A stretch of 6,992 nucleotides of DNA from a virus (Duplodnaviria > Heunggongvirae > Uroviricota > Caudoviricetes). Shown piece after piece: positions 1 through 6,992 of the stretch. Positions within the stretch are counted from its first letter, which is position 1. Each line of letters opens with the position of its first letter. The notes below the pieces were generated by a model. The model did not search any database. It was not told the DNA's origin and was given only the letters and a program-made list of their open reading frames with translations. The stretch lies in the IMG/VR virus record IMGVR_UViG_2778260997_000016, positions 1-6,992 of that record. One strand, 5' to 3'. The position numbers were made by a program, and so were the translations under genes.

Positions 1-56
1 GGTATCCGTTCTGCTGAAGTGTCATGGCGTTGATTTTACGGTGACTCTTCGACAGT

Positions 57-83
57 GAAAAGAAAAAAGGCCGCAGAGCGGCC
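57..83 (-). terminator. Rho-independent terminator for the leftward C-int-cargo transcript
   Basis: Perfect inverted repeat GGCCGC-aga-GCGGCC at 69..83. On the minus strand the hairpin is followed directly by TTTTTTCTTTTC (complement of 57..68). It sits about 110 bp downstream of the last minus-strand stop codon (193..195). Confidence 0.55.
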
Positions 84-192
84 ATAATTACATTCAAAAA
101 TCAATAAGTTACATGATTATCAATAACTTACAGACACACAAAAACACAGCCAACCACAGCAAGTAACAGTGATGTGGTCACTTTGTGGATCA

Positions 193-630
193 TCAGCCAA
201 CAAATTTAGCAACAAAATACGCGACCGCCGCCGTGAAAATGGTTGTGCACACTGGCACAATAATGCCACTCCAACGCCACTTCGTATTATCATCAACCTT
301 GTCAAACCGCCGATTCATCTCATCCATAATCTTGTCAAAGCGTTTATCCATCGCTTCGGTAAGCTCACCCTTCAGGCTGTTAATGTCTGATTTGAGCTGC
401 TCTTTCAGGTTAGCTGTATCAGATTTAAGCTCACCTTTCAGATTCGCAATATCGCATTTAAGCTCACCTTTCAGATGAGCAATGTCTGCTTTGAGCTCAC
501 CCTTCACCTCACCAACATCGGCTTTGGTTGAGAGGTTTGTAGTGCGTTCAGCAAGCGTCGCAAGGTCGTTTCTTGTTAGCGATAAATCACTTTCGAGTCG
601 CTCAATTCGCCTTTCAAGTTTATCTGACAT
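193..630 (-). CDS. Tail-anchored coiled-coil membrane protein with five 11-residue repeats (145 aa from ATG at 628..630; the in-frame upstream ATG at 745..747 would give 184 aa)
   Basis: Listed ORF 193..747. The internal ATG at 628..630 is preceded by GGAGGTGGA, while the extra 39 N-terminal residues are Gly/Ser-rich low complexity, so the shorter form is preferred. Five tandem units D-x-x-x-L-K-G-E-L-K-x are followed by a basic stretch and a C-terminal hydrophobic helix WRWSGIIVPVCTTIFTAAVAYFVAKFVG. Architecture resembles small coiled-coil plus C-terminal TM proteins; no homologue confirmed. Confidence 0.65.
   Translation of the reverse strand: MSDKLERRIERLESDLSLTRNDLATLAERTTNLSTKADVGEVKGELKADIAHLKGELKCDIANLKGELKSDTANLKEQLKSDINSLKGELTEAMDKRFDKIMDEMNRRFDKVDDNTKWRWSGIIVPVCTTIFTAAVAYFVAKFVG
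355..519. repeat. Five imperfect tandem 33-bp repeats inside the membrane-protein gene
   Basis: Units at 355..387, 388..420, 421..453, 454..486 and 487..519 share the core (T/G)AGCTCACC(T/C)TTCA. On the minus strand they encode DINSLKGELTE, DTANLKEQLKS, DIANLKGELKS, DIAHLKGELKC and DVGEVKGELKA. Confidence 0.8.
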
Positions 631-730
631 TCCACCTCCACTACTGCCGCCATCGCCGCCATGATAAAGCACATCACGCTCAGAATGCGACATACTACCT
701 GCTGAATTACCGAAAAGGTTTCTTGCTACA

Positions 731-1231
731 TTACCCATTTTCACCATCCTGTGCTTTGTCTTTCTCCAACCACTTCAGCACCGCAGACGTACGGTAAAGG
801 CTCAGGTAACCACAATTCAGGCAATGCAGCGTGTAATAAGTTTTGCGCATATCAGGTATGCTCTTAACATCACCCAAAAAAGTATAAGATACATAATGCT
901 TTATGTTCTCTTTAATTAACTCACTCTGCTCCTCCAAGGGTAGATTGTTAAAATTTTCTGGTTTCTTATTTTTATCCCAGCAAAGATCCATACTTTCAGG
1001 CACAGATAATCGAGACGATCCACATGAAGGGCAGACACTGGAAACCCCCCTCTCAGACAAGAAACGGAAGAAGATTTCTGGCGTAATCTCCATCAGCCGC
1101 TCCTTATGTTTATTGACACGACTCATCGACTTCTTATTGATTTCATCAGCTTCTTCTTTGCATTTATCTTCTATATATTTCGATAGTAAATAGTCATATA
1201 ACTCTTTTTTTGTAGGTTTTTTTATTTCCAT
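731..1231 (-). CDS. Zinc-ribbon-like hypothetical protein (166 aa, two Cys pairs CPSCG and CLNCG), AT-rich cargo gene translationally coupled to int
   Basis: ATG at 1229..1231 lies 2 nt downstream of the int stop (TAA, 1234..1236). The minus-strand sequence reads GGAGGAATGTAACTATGG, placing a GGAGGA Shine-Dalgarno 8 nt upstream of the start, inside the last int codons. The gene is visibly more AT-rich than int or gene A. Lys/Glu-rich N-terminus. Confidence 0.7.
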   Translation of the reverse strand: MEIKKPTKKELYDYLLSKYIEDKCKEEADEINKKSMSRVNKHKERLMEITPEIFFRFLSERGVSSVCPSCGSSRLSVPESMDLCWDKNKKPENFNNLPLEEQSELIKENIKHYVSYTFLGDVKSIPDMRKTYYTLHCLNCGYLSLYRTSAVLKWLEKDKAQDGENG

Positions 1232-1233
1232 AG

Positions 1234-2211
1234 TTACATTCCTCCCAAGGGATTAAACCTCACCGCATCCTGCAGGTAATCCGGCGCAAGATGGGCATAA
1301 ATCATCGTTGTCTGAATCTTTGCGTGCCCCAGAATTTTCTGGAGCGTCAGAATATTGCCGCCGTTCATCATGAAATGACTGGCGAAGGTGTGGCGCAGCG
1401 CATGAACAGCCTGGCCGTCAGGAACATCAGGTGCGACCGTTTTGATGACATCGCGAACCAATGGATAATCCAGCGTCGGAAACACCAGTTTCCCGCCCCG
1501 TTTTTTGATCTTTTCAAACAGGCTTTCAGAAATAGGAACGGTACGGTTTTTGCTGTTCTTCGTTTTTGAAAAAGTGATTCGACAATGAAGAACACGGCGC
1601 TGCTCCAGTGCCGCTACCTCGCCCCATCGCGCCCCGGTCGACAGAAGGATTTCGACAGCCAGCCGTTCATCGGGATTTTCAGCCAGTGCATCCAGCAACT
1701 GAACACATTCAGACTTACTCAGATATCCCATTTCGCGCTCGTTAACCTTCATTCCTTTAAGGCCTTGAACGGGGTTATCGTTAAGAAAATGGCCGGATGA
1801 GATGAGTGCGGTAAACATCGCGCTTAACGCCCCAATCTCTCGATTTATGGTGCTGGGCTGTATCCCCTGCTCTATCCTGGACACACGTAGCTCGGTGAGC
1901 ATCGTTGTATTAAGTTTATGCACGCACGGGTCATCCATTGCCTCACTCAAGCGCAGCAATTTAAGGCGCGTGTTATGCCCTGACTTCATTAGCTGACCGT
2001 GGTATTTCCACCACAAGTCAATAAGCACTGACAGCGGACGGCGATCAATGGAGTTTCCTTTCCACTCATTGTTATGCTGTTGCGCCAGCACCCACCGCTC
2101 ATATAAAACTGCATCCGATTTCGTTTTAAATTTTTTACGAATGCGTTTGCCTTTACGCCCCTCCGGGCGCATGTCAAGAAGATATCCTCCCGGAATTGAT
2201 TTTATGCTCAT
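1234..2211 (-). CDS. int: Tyrosine recombinase, P2-family phage integrase (326 aa)
   Basis: Translation from the ATG at 2209..2211 begins MSIKSIPGGYLLDMRPEGRKGKRIRKKF, typical of P2-like Int N-termini. The C-terminal catalytic region has HALRHTFASH and GHAKIQTTMIYAHL, consistent with the R..HxxR..Y signature. The listed ORF extends to 2361 only as open frame overlapping the repressor 3' end; that extension is rejected. Confidence 0.9.
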   Translation of the reverse strand: MSIKSIPGGYLLDMRPEGRKGKRIRKKFKTKSDAVLYERWVLAQQHNNEWKGNSIDRRPLSVLIDLWWKYHGQLMKSGHNTRLKLLRLSEAMDDPCVHKLNTTMLTELRVSRIEQGIQPSTINREIGALSAMFTALISSGHFLNDNPVQGLKGMKVNEREMGYLSKSECVQLLDALAENPDERLAVEILLSTGARWGEVAALEQRRVLHCRITFSKTKNSKNRTVPISESLFEKIKKRGGKLVFPTLDYPLVRDVIKTVAPDVPDGQAVHALRHTFASHFMMNGGNILTLQKILGHAKIQTTMIYAHLAPDYLQDAVRFNPLGGM

Positions 2212-2260
2212 TCGTGAAACCCCAGCGTTACAAGACCACCATGCCCCCAGCGCTCCATGA

Positions 2261-2569
2261 TTAGCCGGGCTGTGTGCCAGTCTTGCGGGGTTTTTGAGAA
2301 GGCGATGTGCTTTTTGGCCCATCAGGGGAGAGAGACGGACTGATCTGCCCAGCAGCCTCATTTGTTTTTCCCGTCATAAGCCAATTCATGTACTTAAAAA
2401 AGCGAGGGTGATTAACAATCTTGATAAGCACTTCGCCCCCTATGTTTTCAATCCGCCCCGTTTCATAACGACGCAAAGTGCCGATAGGCACATCAATCAG
2501 GCCGCAAAATTCTTCGCGCGTTAAATCCTCTGATTCACGAATCACTCTAATTTTTTCACCGATAAGCAT
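2261..2569 (-). CDS. C: Immunity repressor, P2 C-type (102 aa from ATG at 2567..2569)
   Basis: Translation MLIGEKIRVIRESEDLTREEFCGLIDVPIGTLRRYETGR with a Ser/Pro/Gln-rich tail resembles the P2 C repressor as I recall it. An AGGA Shine-Dalgarno sits 9 nt upstream of the ATG. The listed ORF start at 2605 is a GTG that would lie inside the operator palindrome region. The gene is divergent from the rightward early operon and directly upstream of int. Confidence 0.8.
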   Translation of the reverse strand: MLIGEKIRVIRESEDLTREEFCGLIDVPIGTLRRYETGRIENIGGEVLIKIVNHPRFFKYMNWLMTGKTNEAAGQISPSLSPDGPKSTSPSQKPRKTGTQPG

Positions 2570-2665
2570 TGACAGTGTTCCTATAAGTACACTAAGCTTG
2601 CGCACAAGGTGTACTTATAAGTACACCAGATCACAAACAACCACAGATAGCGCAGGTTATCACAC
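2570..2665. promoter_or_regulatory. Divergent immunity switch region (early rightward and repressor leftward promoters) with operator-like repeats
   Basis: Perfect 20-bp palindrome GGTGTACTTATAAGTACACC at 2608..2627. The 11-mer TATAAGTACAC occurs as a direct repeat at 2582..2592 and 2616..2626. A consensus TTGACA hexamer lies at 2569..2574. Exact -10 elements could not be assigned with confidence. Confidence 0.6.
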
Positions 2666-2944
2666 ATGGCAAAAGTCCTGAACACACACGAACAGGCAGA
2701 CTTTGAGCGTTTAGCAGCGTTCTATCCCTACCGCGATGAGCATGGGTTACCAGTACTTGAAGAAAGCCTGAAAGATTACGCAAAGCGTACCAACCAAGCT
2801 GTTAACACAGTGAAAAGACAGGCTGACAGAGGTTCAATTCCCATCAACCAGGATGAAAAGAACTCAAGACGCACAGTAAATCTCTTCGCTCTTTTCCTGA
2901 AAACAATCAGGAGCGCAGAAAAATACGTGCAGATGACAAAATAA
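2666..2944 (+). CDS. Cox/Apl-position small early protein (92 aa), putative excisionase/switch regulator
   Basis: First gene of the rightward operon, immediately after the switch region, which is where cox (P2) or apl (186) sits. ATG at 2666, stop TAA at 2942..2944. Function assigned by position only; no sequence motif was confirmed. Confidence 0.55.
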   Translation: MAKVLNTHEQADFERLAAFYPYRDEHGLPVLEESLKDYAKRTNQAVNTVKRQADRGSIPINQDEKNSRRTVNLFALFLKTIRSAEKYVQMTK

Positions 2945-2958
2945 CGAGGTGTCATTTT

Positions 2959-3297
2959 ATGCTGAAGCAACGCCGTAATTTTCGTACCGGAACAGAACGC
3001 CACGCTAACCGTTTCACTACCAGTGCATCACGCAGCAACATCCGCTACAGCCTGAGTGATACACACGCAACGCCGGATGGCTACCCAGTAAAACAAATCG
3101 GCGAGCACGCCTGGCTGATTGAGAAAGCTGGAATCGTGATCCACAAATGCCCACGCAATCCGTTTACCGGAAACCGCATTTTTGCATTGAGCTGTGGCGA
3201 CAATCAGTTCGGGCAGGATTTCACATTATACGAAGCACTTCGCACGGTTGATCGTCTGCTTCGCGGGCAAAGTTTTATTAAACAGGCTGATTTATAA
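2959..3297 (+). CDS. Hypothetical early protein (112 aa)
   Basis: ATG at 2959 with GAGGTG Shine-Dalgarno at 2946..2951 (7-nt spacing). Same strand and tight spacing as the rest of the early operon. Confidence 0.6.
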   Translation: MLKQRRNFRTGTERHANRFTTSASRSNIRYSLSDTHATPDGYPVKQIGEHAWLIEKAGIVIHKCPRNPFTGNRIFALSCGDNQFGQDFTLYEALRTVDRLLRGQSFIKQADL

Positions 3298-3307
3298 CAG
3301 GTGCTTT

Positions 3308-3622
3308 ATGACCAAAAACCATGCACAAGGTGTATTTATCCGTTTTATTGATTTTCGCGGTGAACTGTTATTACGTGCATCCGCTATTGACGGAGTGACT
3401 CCGGCGGGTAAAAACGGAGCCGACGAAGCCACTTACGTTTATCTGAACGGCACGCGACTGCTTGTGGAACTTCCTACCAGACCGTACGAGAAATCATTAG
3501 CGAAGCTGAAAAGGCACGCCAAGTTAATGGCGATGAACCCTATATCGAAATTATTTGTATGGATTCAGAAGCTGAAATACAGAAAGCAGATTAAAGGGTG
3601 TTGCAATGGACAAAGAATATAA
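3308..3622 (+). CDS. Hypothetical early protein (104 aa as written); 3' part may be frameshifted
   Basis: ATG at 3308 preceded by AGGTG. The listed ORF start at 3194 would overlap the upstream gene and is rejected. The 3' third uses AGA/AGG/ATA codons, while the overlapping frame (3481..3594) reads TVREIISEAEKARQVNGDEPYIEIICMDSEAEIQKAD with common codons; see findings. Confidence 0.45.
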   Translation: MTKNHAQGVFIRFIDFRGELLLRASAIDGVTPAGKNGADEATYVYLNGTRLLVELPTRPYEKSLAKLKRHAKLMAMNPISKLFVWIQKLKYRKQIKGCCNGQRI

Positions 3623-3848
3623 AACACTCATCAACAAAGCACTTGAGCGTTTTTATTTTCGCTTAAGTGCATCAGGTACTCATGCTGAACGTGCAGCCCG
3701 TGACTCATTAACCAGGGCAATCCGGAGTCTGTATGACGTGGCTTTTTACGCTGATGATCTGGATGCACTTAACGAACTTTCCGAGCTGATCTGTGCCGCA
3801 GAATGCGGGGAGCATATTGAACCGTATAAGCTGGGGAATATTGCATGA
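3606..3848 (+). CDS. Hypothetical early protein (80 aa)
   Basis: ATG at 3606 with an AGGGTG-like Shine-Dalgarno upstream. Its stop TGA (3846..3848) overlaps the next ATG (3845..3847). Confidence 0.6.
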   Translation: MDKEYKTLINKALERFYFRLSASGTHAERAARDSLTRAIRSLYDVAFYADDLDALNELSELICAAECGEHIEPYKLGNIA

Positions 3849-3958
3849 GTATATTTATCTCATGGCTTGTTCTGATTATTTCGGTGGTCTGCGCCATTGG
3901 GATTATGCGAATTATTCGTTCAGTAAAAAAGATTGACCGCTTTTTCACTGGCGAATAA
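3845..3958 (+). CDS. Small hydrophobic membrane peptide (37 aa), not in the supplied ORF track
   Basis: ATG at 3845..3847 overlaps the upstream stop as ATGA. Translation is MSIFISWLVLIISVVCAIGIMRIIRSVKKIDRFFTGE with stop TAA at 3956..3958: one predicted TM helix followed by a basic tail. Confidence 0.4.
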   Translation: MSIFISWLVLIISVVCAIGIMRIIRSVKKIDRFFTGE

Positions 3959-4045
3959 CAGCGCAAATAAAAACCCTAGGTTAAATAAGAAAATGTAAAA
4001 ACAATCCGCATTCGCGGAGGTATTCGCACACGCCCAGGAGGTGTA

Positions 4046-4249
4046 ATGGCAATTAAGCATTTTCCTGTCGTTCGTTTCACTTCCAGAGGACGTGAATACG
4101 AAGTCGACGAACGCCTGATTACCACAATCGACAAACACCGCTCAGAAAAGGATGCACACCACATCTATCTCACTGACGGTACTTACTTCTGCGCCACTAA
4201 TGTGGCGCGGGTGAATCTTATCCGACAGGTACAGGATCCACGCAAATGA
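4046..4249 (+). CDS. Hypothetical early protein (67 aa)
   Basis: ATG at 4046 with a strong AGGAGGTG Shine-Dalgarno at 4036..4043. Its stop TGA (4247..4249) overlaps the next start. Confidence 0.65.
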   Translation: MAIKHFPVVRFTSRGREYEVDERLITTIDKHRSEKDAHHIYLTDGTYFCATNVARVNLIRQVQDPRK

Positions 4250-4464
4250 GCAGGAGAAGAATCACTCGCAAACATCACCGCACACACCTGAATTCCTCAG
4301 CAACGCTAAAGGCACTTATTAAAAGCGAGATCGGTGATTTCTTCGCGGGAGTTGGCTCGCCAGGTGAACCAGAAACACCAGAAGCGATACAGCGTGAGCT
4401 CATGATACGCATAGATAGCACTTTTGATTTCTTCTACAGCATGCACGGAATTAAACAGAAATGA
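4246..4464 (+). CDS. Hypothetical early protein (72 aa)
   Basis: ATG at 4246..4248 overlaps the upstream stop (ATGA), with an AGGA about 9 nt upstream. Stop TGA at 4462..4464. Confidence 0.6.
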   Translation: MSRRRITRKHHRTHLNSSATLKALIKSEIGDFFAGVGSPGEPETPEAIQRELMIRIDSTFDFFYSMHGIKQK

Positions 4465-4572
4465 ACCTCAAGCCAGCAATAACTACTCGTAGAACGCCAA
4501 TTCCTGTAACCGACCGCTTCTGAGTTTTTTGGCAGGAAGCCTTCGCACATCCTTAGTAGAGAGAATTGCAGC

Positions 4573-4962
4573 ATGATTGACGCTCATGACTTCACAAGAT
4601 GGGTGCGCACACAGGACACCCGTCTGGCTCCCGTTCTTCAGGGATTATTTGATCTCTACATCCGTAGTCGTGACAACAGAGCACGCACTACAAAACCGGA
4701 GAATGCAGACACCCTTTATTTCACAGTAGACGACTGCTACCGCGTGGACTTAACACCACACGGACTGGCGTTGCACTGCCTGACACCGCACGGCGAATCA
4801 CTGCTGGCGTATTACGACTCCCCGGCCTCCGTATTTGCGGCAATGCTGGCGCATCGCACTGCTGGCGGGTGTGCCTCGCTGAGTGAATACACCGCTGAGT
4901 TTAACCGCCTTTCCGCCCTCTTCTCGCAGGAGTGGCAGCGCGTGACGGGATACCAGCCATGA
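4573..4962 (+). CDS. Hypothetical early protein (129 aa) immediately upstream of, and coupled to, gene A
   Basis: ATG at 4573. Its stop TGA (4960..4962) overlaps the gene A start ATG (4959..4961). Confidence 0.65.
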   Translation: MIDAHDFTRWVRTQDTRLAPVLQGLFDLYIRSRDNRARTTKPENADTLYFTVDDCYRVDLTPHGLALHCLTPHGESLLAYYDSPASVFAAMLAHRTAGGCASLSEYTAEFNRLSALFSQEWQRVTGYQP

Positions 4963-6992
4963 GTGCGTTTGCATGGAGCTGGAATGAACCACGACCAGCT
5001 ATTGATCCGGCCAGATTTACGGAGCGCAGGCAGGAAACTGAAACCGACCTGCAACGCGCCATCCGTTACTACCTTGAGGCGGACAAAAGGGCACAGGAAG
5101 AACAGGAAGCGAAGGAAGAAGCCTTTTTCGCACAATCCGCCATGGGTAAAAAACTCATGGCATCCCTTGAGGAAGCCGGACAGCGTGAAAAGCTGGCACA
5201 GAGCATCATCAGTAAGCGCCGGGCAACAGAACAAGACCCGGTGGCCCGTGCTTTTGCCACACTGAAGGTGCTTCCCGTTTATCTGCGTGAACCTCTGAGC
5301 CGCCACCTCTCTTTCCTGCGCAAAAAACAGGAATCCGATCGTCAGAAAGGCAAAAAGAGCTGGCAGGCTGAACGCTACGCGCGCGGAACCCTGCGCAAAA
5401 TATTCGTACGTCTGGACCGCACCGACAGCCGTTGGCTGACACCGGGTTATCGGTCCCTTGCCGGACGTGAACGCCTGGACGATTTGCTTTACCTGCCGCA
5501 GCTCAACAAACACCAGATACAGACGCTGGCCACCATGACGGCGGCGATGTTCAGCAGCACCTTCGAAAAACTCTGCGATGGCTTTGGCGCGACCGATGGC
5601 GAACTGACCATGGATGTAACGCTGAAGGCGTATCAGATGCTGGCCCGCATGGCGTTACACCTGCACATCATGCCTCCACATTATGACGCACTGACAACAG
5701 ATAAAGACCGGAGGAACGAACCGGACACGGAGCTGCTGCCGGGCGCAATCCTTCGCCTGACCTGTACGGAATGGTGGAAACGCAAACTGTGGCTGTTACG
5801 TTGCGAGTGGAGAGAAGAACAACTCCGCGCCGCCTGTCTGGTTTCCAGAAAAACATCGCCCTATCTGAGCCAGGACGCATTAAGCGAGTTTCGCGCACAG
5901 CGCGAGAAAACACGCGATTTCCTGAAAAGTTTCATGCTGGAAAACGAAGATGGATTCACGATTGATCTCGAGACAGTGTATTACGCGGGAGTAAGTAACC
6001 CGGTTCACCGTAAGGCAGAAATGATGGCCACCATGAAGGGGCTGGAACTTCTGGCCGAAGCCCGTGGCGACAAAGCGGTGTTTCTGACTGTCACCTGCCC
6101 GTCAAAATACCACGCCACAACAGAGAACGGTCATCCGAATCCCAAATGGAACGGGGCCACCATGCGCGACTCCAGCGATTACCTGGTTAACACGTTTTTT
6201 GCGGCGGTCCGCAAAAAACTGAACCGCGATGGCCTGCGCTGGTATGGCATCCGCACGGTGGAGCCTCACCATGACGGCACCGTGCACTGGCATATGATGG
6301 TCTTTGCTCATCCGGAAGAAATCGACACTATTGTGTCCCACACCCGCGATATTGCCATTCAGGAAGATCGTCACGAGCTGGGTGATGATATTACCCCACG
6401 CTTTAAGGCGGAGTACGTCGACGGCTCAAAAGGCACACCGACCAGCTACATCGCCACCTACATCGGGAAAAACCTGGACAGCCGTGCCGTGGATGGCATC
6501 GACCCGAAAACGGGCAAGCCACGCGTTGACCACGAAACCGGAAAATCAATGGCCGAGAGCGTGGAACGCGCCATCGGCTGGGCGCGCCTTCACCGGGTCC
6601 GCCAGTTCCAGTTCTTTGGCATCCCCTCCCGCCAGGTATGGCGTGAACTGCGCCGCCTTGCCAGCCAGATGGCACGCAACCCGGAAGGCCCGCAACGGCT
6701 GAAGGATGACGCAATGGATGCGGTTCTTGCCGCCGCTGATGCCGGATGTTTTGCCACCTACATAGAGAAACAGGGCGGCGTACTTGTTCCACGCAAAGAC
6801 TACCTGATTCGCACCGCCTACGACCTCGCCGATGAGCTGAACGATTACGGCGAACAGAGCGTACAGATTTACGGGATCTGGTCGCCATTCATCGGGGAAT
6901 CCTCCCGTGTGTGCACGCATCCGGATAACTGGAAGCTGGTAAGACGTAAACCGGAAGCGGAAGACAGCGCCCGCGAAAATGGTTTTGACCTT
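4959..6992 (+). CDS. A: Replication initiation protein A, HUH-type rolling-circle endonuclease; 3' end truncated by the window (678 codons present)
   Basis: Frame opens at ATG 4959 and continues without a stop to the window end, so it is absent from the ORF track. Translation contains the HUH motif VHWHMMVF (codons at 6285..6293) and paired tyrosines YIATY (6447..6461). Overall resemblance to the P2 gpA family, last gene of the early operon. Confidence 0.9.
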   Translation, partial: MSAFAWSWNEPRPAIDPARFTERRQETETDLQRAIRYYLEADKRAQEEQEAKEEAFFAQSAMGKKLMASLEEAGQREKLAQSIISKRRATEQDPVARAFATLKVLPVYLREPLSRHLSFLRKKQESDRQKGKKSWQAERYARGTLRKIFVRLDRTDSRWLTPGYRSLAGRERLDDLLYLPQLNKHQIQTLATMTAAMFSSTFEKLCDGFGATDGELTMDVTLKAYQMLARMALHLHIMPPHYDALTTDKDRRNEPDTELLPGAILRLTCTEWWKRKLWLLRCEWREEQLRAACLVSRKTSPYLSQDALSEFRAQREKTRDFLKSFMLENEDGFTIDLETVYYAGVSNPVHRKAEMMATMKGLELLAEARGDKAVFLTVTCPSKYHATTENGHPNPKWNGATMRDSSDYLVNTFFAAVRKKLNRDGLRWYGIRTVEPHHDGTVHWHMMVFAHPEEIDTIVSHTRDIAIQEDRHELGDDITPRFKAEYVDGSKGTPTSYIATYIGKNLDSRAVDGIDPKTGKPRVDHETGKSMAESVERAIGWARLHRVRQFQFFGIPSRQVWRELRRLASQMARNPEGPQRLKDDAMDAVLAAADAGCFATYIEKQGGVLVPRKDYLIRTAYDLADELNDYGEQSVQIYGIWSPFIGESSRVCTHPDNWKLVRRKPEAEDSARENGFDL

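Follow-up and report, generated by a model that had tools for sequence, protein, structure and literature searches.

Early lytic operons of P2-like phages extend from the switch genes to the replication gene, a layout documented in the phage records of P2 (Pe: cox...A) and 186 (pR: apl...A). In phage 186, the products of fil and dhr act on the host (division and replication). Small membrane-protein regulators of the AcrZ, MgrB, MgtS, and SgrT class act by helix-helix binding to a larger membrane protein. Members of this class are <50 amino acids (aa) long and have a single transmembrane (TM) helix (PMC12648545). The gene described here occupies positions 3845 to 3958 (plus strand; 37 codons, ATG to TAA) of virus record IMGVR_UViG_2778260997_000016, and the term "window" refers to the whole 6,992-nucleotide (nt) stretch of that record that was analyzed (positions 1 to 6,992). 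Its product, MSIFISWLVLIISVVCAIGIMRIIRSVKKIDRFFTGE, is likewise <50 aa long, with one TM helix and conservation on one helical face. The gene itself is situated in the early lytic operon, after cox and before gpA. Its closest positional analogues are fil and dhr, which are small and overlapping and stand between the switch genes and the replication genes in the early operon of a Peduoviridae phage. The sequence and comparative evidence makes it highly probable that positions 3845 to 3958 hold a real, translated, and selected protein-coding gene. The best overall explanation, which is favored with moderate confidence, is a coupled early-operon inner-membrane microprotein that would act through helix-helix contact.

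The closest described relative is gp07 of phage P88 (YP_009113050.1), which is 92% identical to the window peptide and is called "membrane protein" in the P88 RefSeq record. RefSeq/PGAP also annotates the open reading frame (ORF) in Escherichia coli 14EC001 (WP_000021671.1, hypothetical protein), where the gene at the equivalent position encodes the identical 37 aa, and in O157:H7 strain 86-24 (WP_000021655.1), and the record of vB_EcoM-569R5 labels the peptide "putative membrane protein." P88 gp07, WP_000021671.1, and WP_000021655.1 belong to the same family as the window peptide and equal it in length, in the ATGA overlap with the gene for a domain of unknown function (DUF), DUF4754, and in operon position, and there is no substantive difference between them. 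A sequence-only reading of this DNA had described the gene as unlisted and as a type commonly missed by annotation. It was indeed missing from that reading's own ORF track, but the public records cited above all list it. The gene is already publicly annotated, and it is a family model and a published function that are wanting. No family model for the peptide was found in Pfam, PHROGs, or NCBIfam, and searches of PADLOC, PDB sequences, and Rfam were also empty; the sole Pfam match, to DUF2975, scored 13.7 bits, far below the cutoff of 27. An exhaustive phmmer search of 1.84 billion representatives returned eight matches, all of them from the peptide's own family and none to a characterized protein. 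A literature search found no paper containing "DUF4754" or the peptide sequence, and the gene is not discussed in the papers on P88 and phiSM.

The reading frame begins at the very end of the preceding gene. The DUF4754 gene (positions 3606 to 3848, plus strand) encodes 80 aa and matches Pfam PF15946 over its full length (E = 1.4e-54). The peptide ATG (3845 to 3847) shares its three bases with the end of this gene, whose TGA occupies 3846 to 3848 (context gcATGAgt), so that the two genes are joined by an ATGA stop-start overlap (3845 to 3848), a translational coupling signal. The sequence-only reading had reported this ORF and its coupling exactly. A Shine-Dalgarno (SD)-like GGGGA (3833 to 3837) stands 7 nt 5' of the ATG, within the last DUF4754 codons, and may serve as the ribosome-binding site. 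An open frame of 37 codons after an ATG is expected by chance at about (61/64)^37, or ~0.17, and is therefore not rare by itself. However, chance is excluded because the overlap and frame are kept down to 62% nucleotide identity and a synonymous excess is found in this frame only.

Conservation was examined in 91 DUF4754-anchored loci, which were not selected for the peptide, together with 80 peptide-anchored loci and 45 loci anchored on divergent DUF4754 genes. In all DUF4754-anchored relatives, the peptide follows DUF4754 and overlaps it as [A/G]TGA. The junction reads ATGA in 98 of the 99 distinct DNA versions of the DUF4754-plus-peptide region and in 44 of the 45 further loci, with GTGA in the remaining one (L203, IMGVR_UViG_2711768053_000017), where GTG is still a valid start codon and the frame is intact. 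Among the 99 versions, 95 encode a product of 37 or 41 aa, 2 encode 45 aa because one nucleotide is missing from a T5 run in the tail, and 1 encodes 30 aa owing to an extra A in the A6 run. The one remaining version is the phage 503458 record, which has several indels across both genes. It was considered as a peptide-specific loss and rejected, since single-base gaps in DUF4754 homopolymers accompany the 4-nt deletion and the extra A in the peptide ORF; these indels point to record quality or general decay. When 218 loci were reduced to 87 distinct versions of the ORF plus 25 nt upstream, 70 encoded 37 aa, 12 encoded 41 aa, 3 encoded 30 aa, and 2 encoded 45 aa. A search for broken frames among close relatives thus found the frame intact (37 or 41 aa) in 82 of the 87 versions. 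It is also intact in the 41-aa subfamily, which is 51 to 65% identical, ends in ...FTG[DE]KRRK, and follows, at the equivalent place, DUF4754 proteins with only 36 to 42% identity to that of the window. An SD-like purine tract (GGGG, GGGA, GAGG, GGAG, or AGGG) is present 6 to 10 nt before the start in nearly all of the 87 versions, and it is retained where the overlapping C-terminal residues of DUF4754 differ.

Minority tail variants arise at an A6 run (GTA AAA AAG; positions 3923 to 3931), an indel hot spot that gives rise to 30-aa and 45-aa forms; another 45-aa form in the databases (e.g., P0002) results from a 1-nt deletion in this run. The same run contains an in-frame dnaX-like A_AAA_AAG heptamer, at which a -1 slip would yield a 30-aa product ending in "...VKKD," which is also known as a mutational variant. 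Programmed -1 frameshifting at this site was considered and rejected. Of the 70 distinct 37-aa versions, 19 lack the heptamer, as does every 41-aa version, and because the heptamer is not conserved in the family, it is probably incidental and only a mutational hot spot.

The substitution pattern in the peptide frame is that of a protein-coding gene. The pooled ratio of nonsynonymous to synonymous divergence (pN/pS) among 37-aa alleles is 0.26, values for this frame range from 0.26 to 0.5, and the synonymous excess occurs in this frame only. The window differs from locus L086 with a pS of 0.53 and a pN of 0.21 (one-sided Fisher test for synonymous excess, P = 0.0018) and from locus L090 with a pS of 0.72 and a pN of 0.28 (P = 9e-5), and in the comparison with L090 the other five frames show no synonymous excess (P >= 0.19). 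In these distant comparisons, the peptide is better conserved than its partner (pN of 0.21 to 0.28 versus 0.47 for DUF4754). The proposal of the sequence-only reading that this is a real small gene is therefore upheld by the frame-specific synonymous excess and by the conserved frame and overlap. A 65-codon antisense ORF (positions 3769 to 3966, minus strand) was also considered as the real gene, with the sense ORF as its shadow. No relative has a stop codon in this antisense frame across the region, and close relatives give a pN/pS of 0.30 for it; however, this value mimics that of the sense frame because the third codon positions of the two frames coincide. In addition, its ends are variable, giving lengths of 42 to 146 codons, no start is conserved (that in the window is TTG), its synonymous excess is lost in the most distant pair (P = 0.19, versus 9e-5 for the sense frame), and it would overlap DUF4754 in antisense and is annotated in none of the records. 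With its variable ends and lost distant signal, the antisense ORF was rejected as a shadow ORF, and the probability that it is the real gene is negligible.

The peptide is an uncharacterized member of a narrow microprotein family restricted to Escherichia phages. A profile search yielded 139 protein clusters at E <= 1 (best E = 5.6e-20), and the named matches listed are all from Escherichia, nearly all being "hypothetical protein [Escherichia coli]"; E. albertii and E. fergusonii account for a few of them. The window peptide has the family pattern, a length of 37 to 41 aa and the motif M-[SN]-x-F-x-S-W ... A-x-G-I-M-R-I-I ... I-[ED]-x-x-F. The segment from 3500 to 4300 is present in 1,366 of 5,426 complete E. 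coli genomes (about a quarter), and carriers of the P88-like module include O157:H7, O104:H4, O111, and O121 strains. A scan of GTDB species representatives gave two loci only, one in E. albertii and one in a record titled Vagococcus, and single records labeled Citrobacter (phage Shae_phiSM) and Salmonella (plasmid) also carry the peptide module. In practical terms, the family is limited to Escherichia and Escherichia phages. The Vagococcus record (L004, NZ_JBQPOM010000071.1, "Vagococcus sp. WN89Y," a 226-kb contig) has a DUF4754 with 98% protein identity in a region with 94.6% DNA identity, and the presence of an E. coli prophage module in this Firmicute assembly is likely due to contamination or mislabeling.

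The sequence features of the product are those of a small membrane protein. Residues 3 to 21 (IFISWLVLIISVVCAIGIM; positions 3851 to 3907, plus strand) are predicted to form a TM helix by hydropathy, Hessa insertion energy, AlphaFold2, and column conservation. Their mean Kyte-Doolittle hydropathy is 2.81, they are the top hydrophobic 19-residue segment among the 77 ORFs of at least 30 aa in the window, and their summed Hessa apparent insertion energy is -3.35. Residues 22 to 34 (RIIRSVKKIDRFF; positions 3908 to 3946, plus strand) are predicted from hydrophobic moment (0.9 to 1.0) and charge to be a basic amphipathic juxtamembrane helix on the cytoplasmic side, and the tail as a whole (residues 22 to 37) has five K/R residues versus two D/E residues. 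AlphaFold2, run with a 27-sequence family alignment, gives one unbroken helix from residue 2 to residue 34, with a mean predicted local distance difference test (pLDDT) score of 87.5. The description in the sequence-only reading, one TM helix followed by a basic tail, agrees with these results. The 41-aa relatives carry an extra C-terminal KRRK, which brings their net positive charge to about +5 or +6.

Only Met-Ser precedes the TM segment and the net positive charge is all C-terminal, so the positive-inside rule predicts an N-out/C-in topology, and the peptide is likely a membrane microprotein of this orientation. The major coat protein of Pf3, a structural virion protein of a filamentous phage, is the paradigm of an N-out/C-in, YidC-dependent small phage protein. 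It resembles the peptide in its design, in that a single TM helix lies between a short N-terminal end and a C-terminal tail that is basic and aromatic, and it can serve as a model of the way in which such a peptide might insert, but it has no homology with the peptide and a different genomic context. Insertion of the peptide could proceed via YidC/Sec or spontaneously, as for other very small phage proteins (PMC12648545).

Conservation along the predicted helix was analyzed in 57 distinct full-length family sequences (56 database members and that of the window). M1, S6, W7, L10, and F34 are invariant, and I11, A17, G19, I20, I24, and I30 are nearly so. F4, M21, R22, K28, and E31 are each kept in ~85 to 88% of the sequences after weighting, 96% of which have S or A at position 13, and E or D occupies position 31. 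Angular power in the conservation profile of residues 4 to 35 peaks at ~105 degrees per residue (3.4 residues per turn), a value reached by 19 of 5,000 shuffles. The conserved stripe, 6/7-10-13-17-20/21-24-(27/28)-30/31-34, spans the whole predicted helix and holds a small-xxx-small pair, [S/A]13 and A17, in addition to G19. One conserved face with a small-xxx-small motif suggests a helix-packing interface rather than a generic hydrophobic anchor.

From these features and from P2/186 logic, we infer the expression timing, topology, binding mode, and any host effect as follows. Transcription of cox...gpA, including the peptide gene, would occur only on repressor release (induction) or on infection, and translation of the peptide would be coupled to that of DUF4754 through the ATGA overlap and the SD-like GGGGA. 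The product would be a 37-aa single-pass inner-membrane helix, with its N terminus in the periplasm and the basic segment of residues 22 to 34 on the cytoplasmic side. It would make specific helix-helix contacts, the partner being another copy of the peptide, a host inner-membrane protein, and/or the cotranslated DUF4754, and it would act as a small membrane-protein regulator that alters host membrane function early in lytic growth without detergent-like toxicity. The AcrZ/MgrB/MgtS/SgrT class of small single-pass membrane-protein regulators appears to be the best-fitting functional class, as a likely mode of action and not as a statement of membership, since these proteins have no sequence relationship with the peptide, which is encoded by a phage in a lytic operon. 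Action on a specific partner, rather than as a pore or toxin, is given slightly less than an even chance.

The peptide was previously suggested to have the architecture of small membrane-acting toxins and host-takeover peptides, a reading that is possible on the strength of that architecture. Under this explanation, the peptide is a membrane-acting toxin or "kil"-type host-takeover peptide whose helix oligomerizes or perturbs the inner membrane and causes early depolarization or growth/division arrest. Type I toxins (Hok, Ldr, TisB, Ibs, ShoB, and Fst and the prophage-borne BsrG/TxpA types) are small hydrophobic helices with a charged C terminus (PMC12648545), and the peptide shares this small hydrophobic membrane character and the combination of a short hydrophobic helix with a basic tail. 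However, a type I toxin is transcribed from a promoter of its own and is paired with a cis or overlapping antisense RNA, whereas the peptide gene is stop-start coupled inside an operon. No promoter-like site was found between 2400 and 5000 on either strand and no antisense RNA or Rfam family was detected, although a novel small RNA (sRNA) could escape these scans. No match of the peptide to the known toxin families (Hok, Ldr, Ibs, TisB, ShoB, Zor, and Fst) was found in Pfam, NCBIfam, or PADLOC, and no homology to any toxin, holin, or defense family was found in these databases, PHROGs, or PDB sequences. The small-xxx-small motif could equally drive self-oligomerization; however, conservation on one face agrees with specific helix-helix binding no less well than with nonspecific membrane damage. 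Depolarization of the host before replication would also be costly to the phage, and roughly one in four complete E. coli genomes retains the gene intact without a recognizable antidote. The position of the gene parallels that of the host-directed fil and dhr in the 186 early operon, but Fil and Dhr are unrelated to the peptide, are 66 to 75 aa long, and are without a TM helix (translations compared by eye and by hydropathy), and a scan of the P2 and 186 early operons for a TM-type small ORF found none. A toxin is therefore an unlikely explanation of the peptide.

Two further classes of phage membrane proteins differ from the peptide in genomic placement. Holins and pinholins share with it a TM helix and a charged C-terminal tail, but the peptide gene lies in the early region (cox to gpA) outside the late lysis cassette, its product is far shorter than known holins, and the holin family models of Pfam and PHROGs gave no match to it. 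Superinfection-exclusion proteins (T4 Imm, P22 SieA, and HK97 gp15) are expressed from a repressed prophage. The peptide gene is not so placed; it lies on the lytic strand, 3' of cox, and is coupled to early genes that, by analogy with P2 and 186, would be repressed in lysogens.

The constant partner of the microprotein is DUF4754, which lies directly 5' of the peptide in every locus examined, including those with DUF4754 variants 36 to 42% identical to that of the window. The obligatory 4-nt coupling suggests coordinated synthesis of the two proteins. AlphaFold2 models DUF4754 as a three-helix bundle (pLDDT, 89). A Foldseek search of PDB with this model found generic or designed helical bundles only (E > 1), and a PDB sequence search found nothing below E = 0.2. 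The peptide could be a membrane anchor, whose basic cytoplasmic tail tethers the acidic three-helix DUF4754 as the effector to the inner membrane. The universal pairing with 4-nt overlaps in all loci examined favors equimolar and colocalized synthesis, and DUF4754 is net acidic by residue count, while the peptide tail carries a charge of +3 to +6. However, DUF4754 variants with a shared identity of only ~40% are found with the same peptide, natural in-frame DUF4754-peptide fusions were not found among database proteins, and the DUF4754 fold offers no functional lead. Database proteins of 103 to 128 aa that appear to be such fusions were rejected; they come from low-quality assemblies, where a frameshift leads to read-through into the +2 frame. 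A role as an anchor is accordingly rated as improbable, slightly more so than that of a toxin. A broader proposal, in which DUF4754 and the microprotein form a hitherto unrecognized two-gene host-takeover module in P88-like phages and the conserved face of the 37-aa helix docks on a specific E. coli inner-membrane machine, is speculative and somewhat doubtful; its targets may include a divisome, transport, or respiratory component, to which DUF4754 may perhaps be brought.

Several observations weigh against the interpretation of the gene as a coupled early-operon microprotein acting through helix-helix contact. Among close relatives, purifying selection is weaker on the peptide than on DUF4754 (pN/pS, 0.26 versus 0.07). 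The 45-aa frameshifted and 30-aa truncated tail variants are a recurrent minority, which suggests that, in some lysogens, the tail can be dispensed with or is under weak selection. A single narrow family, restricted to Escherichia, is the source of the helical-face signal. The 41-aa peptide P0003 occurs in identical form behind two types of DUF4754, with 84% and 42% identity to that of the window, so that covariation does not support a tight DUF4754-peptide interface; recombination shuffles the pair. A simple scan found no sigma-70 consensus promoter between 2400 and 5000 on either strand, and the operon promoter and expression timing are for this reason taken from P2/186 logic. Finally, the ribosome profiling study of enterohemorrhagic E. 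coli EDL933 screened only ORFs of >=153 bp in uninduced cells. The weaker selection and the recurrent tail variants would also be expected of a translated spacer or hitchhiking relic, in which translation or the DNA/RNA sequence serves the operon and the peptide itself is functionless, and the recombination and insertion hot spot directly 3' of the ORF is in keeping with this idea. However, the frame-specific synonymous excess persists even at a pS of 0.5 to 0.7, length, start, and stop are conserved in both the 37- and 41-aa subfamilies, and amino acid conservation has helical periodicity; in addition, neither an RNA family nor strong structure was detected at the locus. A functionless spacer is thus very improbable, and the coupled microprotein is retained as the preferred explanation.

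From about position 2990 onward, the window is a 90 to 96% match to P2-like phages of the genus Xuanwuvirus, among them P88, P884B11, PhiR44_2, Chuche, and Citrobacter phage phiSM. The window represents the left end of such a P88-like prophage. An integrase gene (1234 to 2361) and a gene for a CI-like helix-turn-helix repressor (2261 to 2605) lie on the minus strand. They are followed by a Cox-like gene (2666 to 2944, plus strand), a DUF4761 gene (2959 to 3297), an ORF matching phrog_3800 (3308 to 3622, plus strand), DUF4754, the peptide gene, three small ORFs (4046 to 4249, 4246 to 4464, and 4573 to 4962), and the gpA replication endonuclease gene (4959 to the end of the window). The operon junctions are short gaps or 4-nt overlaps, with ATGA at 3845, 4246, and 4959. 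This P2-like layout from cox to gpA confirms the earlier assignment of the peptide gene to the early operon of a temperate phage.

The phrog_3800 match covers only positions 1 to 65 of 95. Compared with 14EC001 and P88, this gene has a 1-nt deletion near 3474/3475 (CTTCC-TACCAG versus CTTCCGTACCAG) and a 9-nt insertion near 3414 to 3422. The deletion shifts the C terminus, so that the ORF now ends 17 nt inside DUF4754, and it is either a sequencing error or the onset of decay in this prophage copy. The intergenic spacer between the peptide gene and the next early gene (3959 to 4045) contains a strong AGGAGG before 4046 and is a cargo-insertion hot spot. Most relatives lose homology at ~4031 to 4035, where inserts of ~280 to 760 bp, e.g., one with a 136- to 138-aa ORF, are found, and homology resumes just before the next gene. 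A scan found no terminator-like site on the plus strand after the peptide gene; a small hairpin (4005 to 4018) with a T-run resembles a terminator on the minus strand.

The left part of the window carries other cargo. Between the integrase gene and the prophage end lie two genes on the minus strand, one (193 to 747) encoding a 184-aa coiled-coil protein that is DUF1640/CCDC90-like, with tandem repeats of 33 nt (11 aa) at 360 to 506, and the other (731 to 1231) encoding a 166-aa protein with a weak Zn-ribbon match. Only 23 complete E. coli genomes, mostly O157:H7, match >=80% of the stretch from 1 to 2650 (cargo genes, integrase, and repressor). Positions 1 to 134 (minus strand) contain a subthreshold match to the enterobacterial sRNA family STnc540 (29.3 bits versus a gathering score of 38) and are presumably the host flank by the attachment site, because some part of 1 to 2650 matches all 5,426 E. 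coli genomes.

The DUF4754-peptide module also occurs in unusual settings. A phage-sized, 34.5-kb circular record deposited as a "plasmid" (NZ_CP148288.1, hit H60) carries it, and the P88 locus (L002, 8768 to 9884) has ParM and partition genes 3' of gpA, an indication that episomal persistence may occur in some P88-like phages. In L087 (GCA_900536625.1, 1 to 2795), Mu-like MuA and MuB genes lie directly 5' of the DUF4761-DUF4754-peptide block, replacing the integrase, C repressor, and cox genes, an arrangement that points to a Mu insertion or a chimeric element.

The main result is that a tiny ORF that was already annotated is confirmed as a selected gene, with a specific set of residues to mutate. 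P88-like prophages are common in E. coli, yet the conserved core of their early operon (DUF4761, phrog_3800, DUF4754, and the microprotein) is without an assigned function. If the proposed action is correct, the targeting of the host inner membrane would provide a phage example among the small-membrane-protein regulators, a counterpart of AcrZ or MgrB, and the microprotein could point to a vulnerable target in the host.

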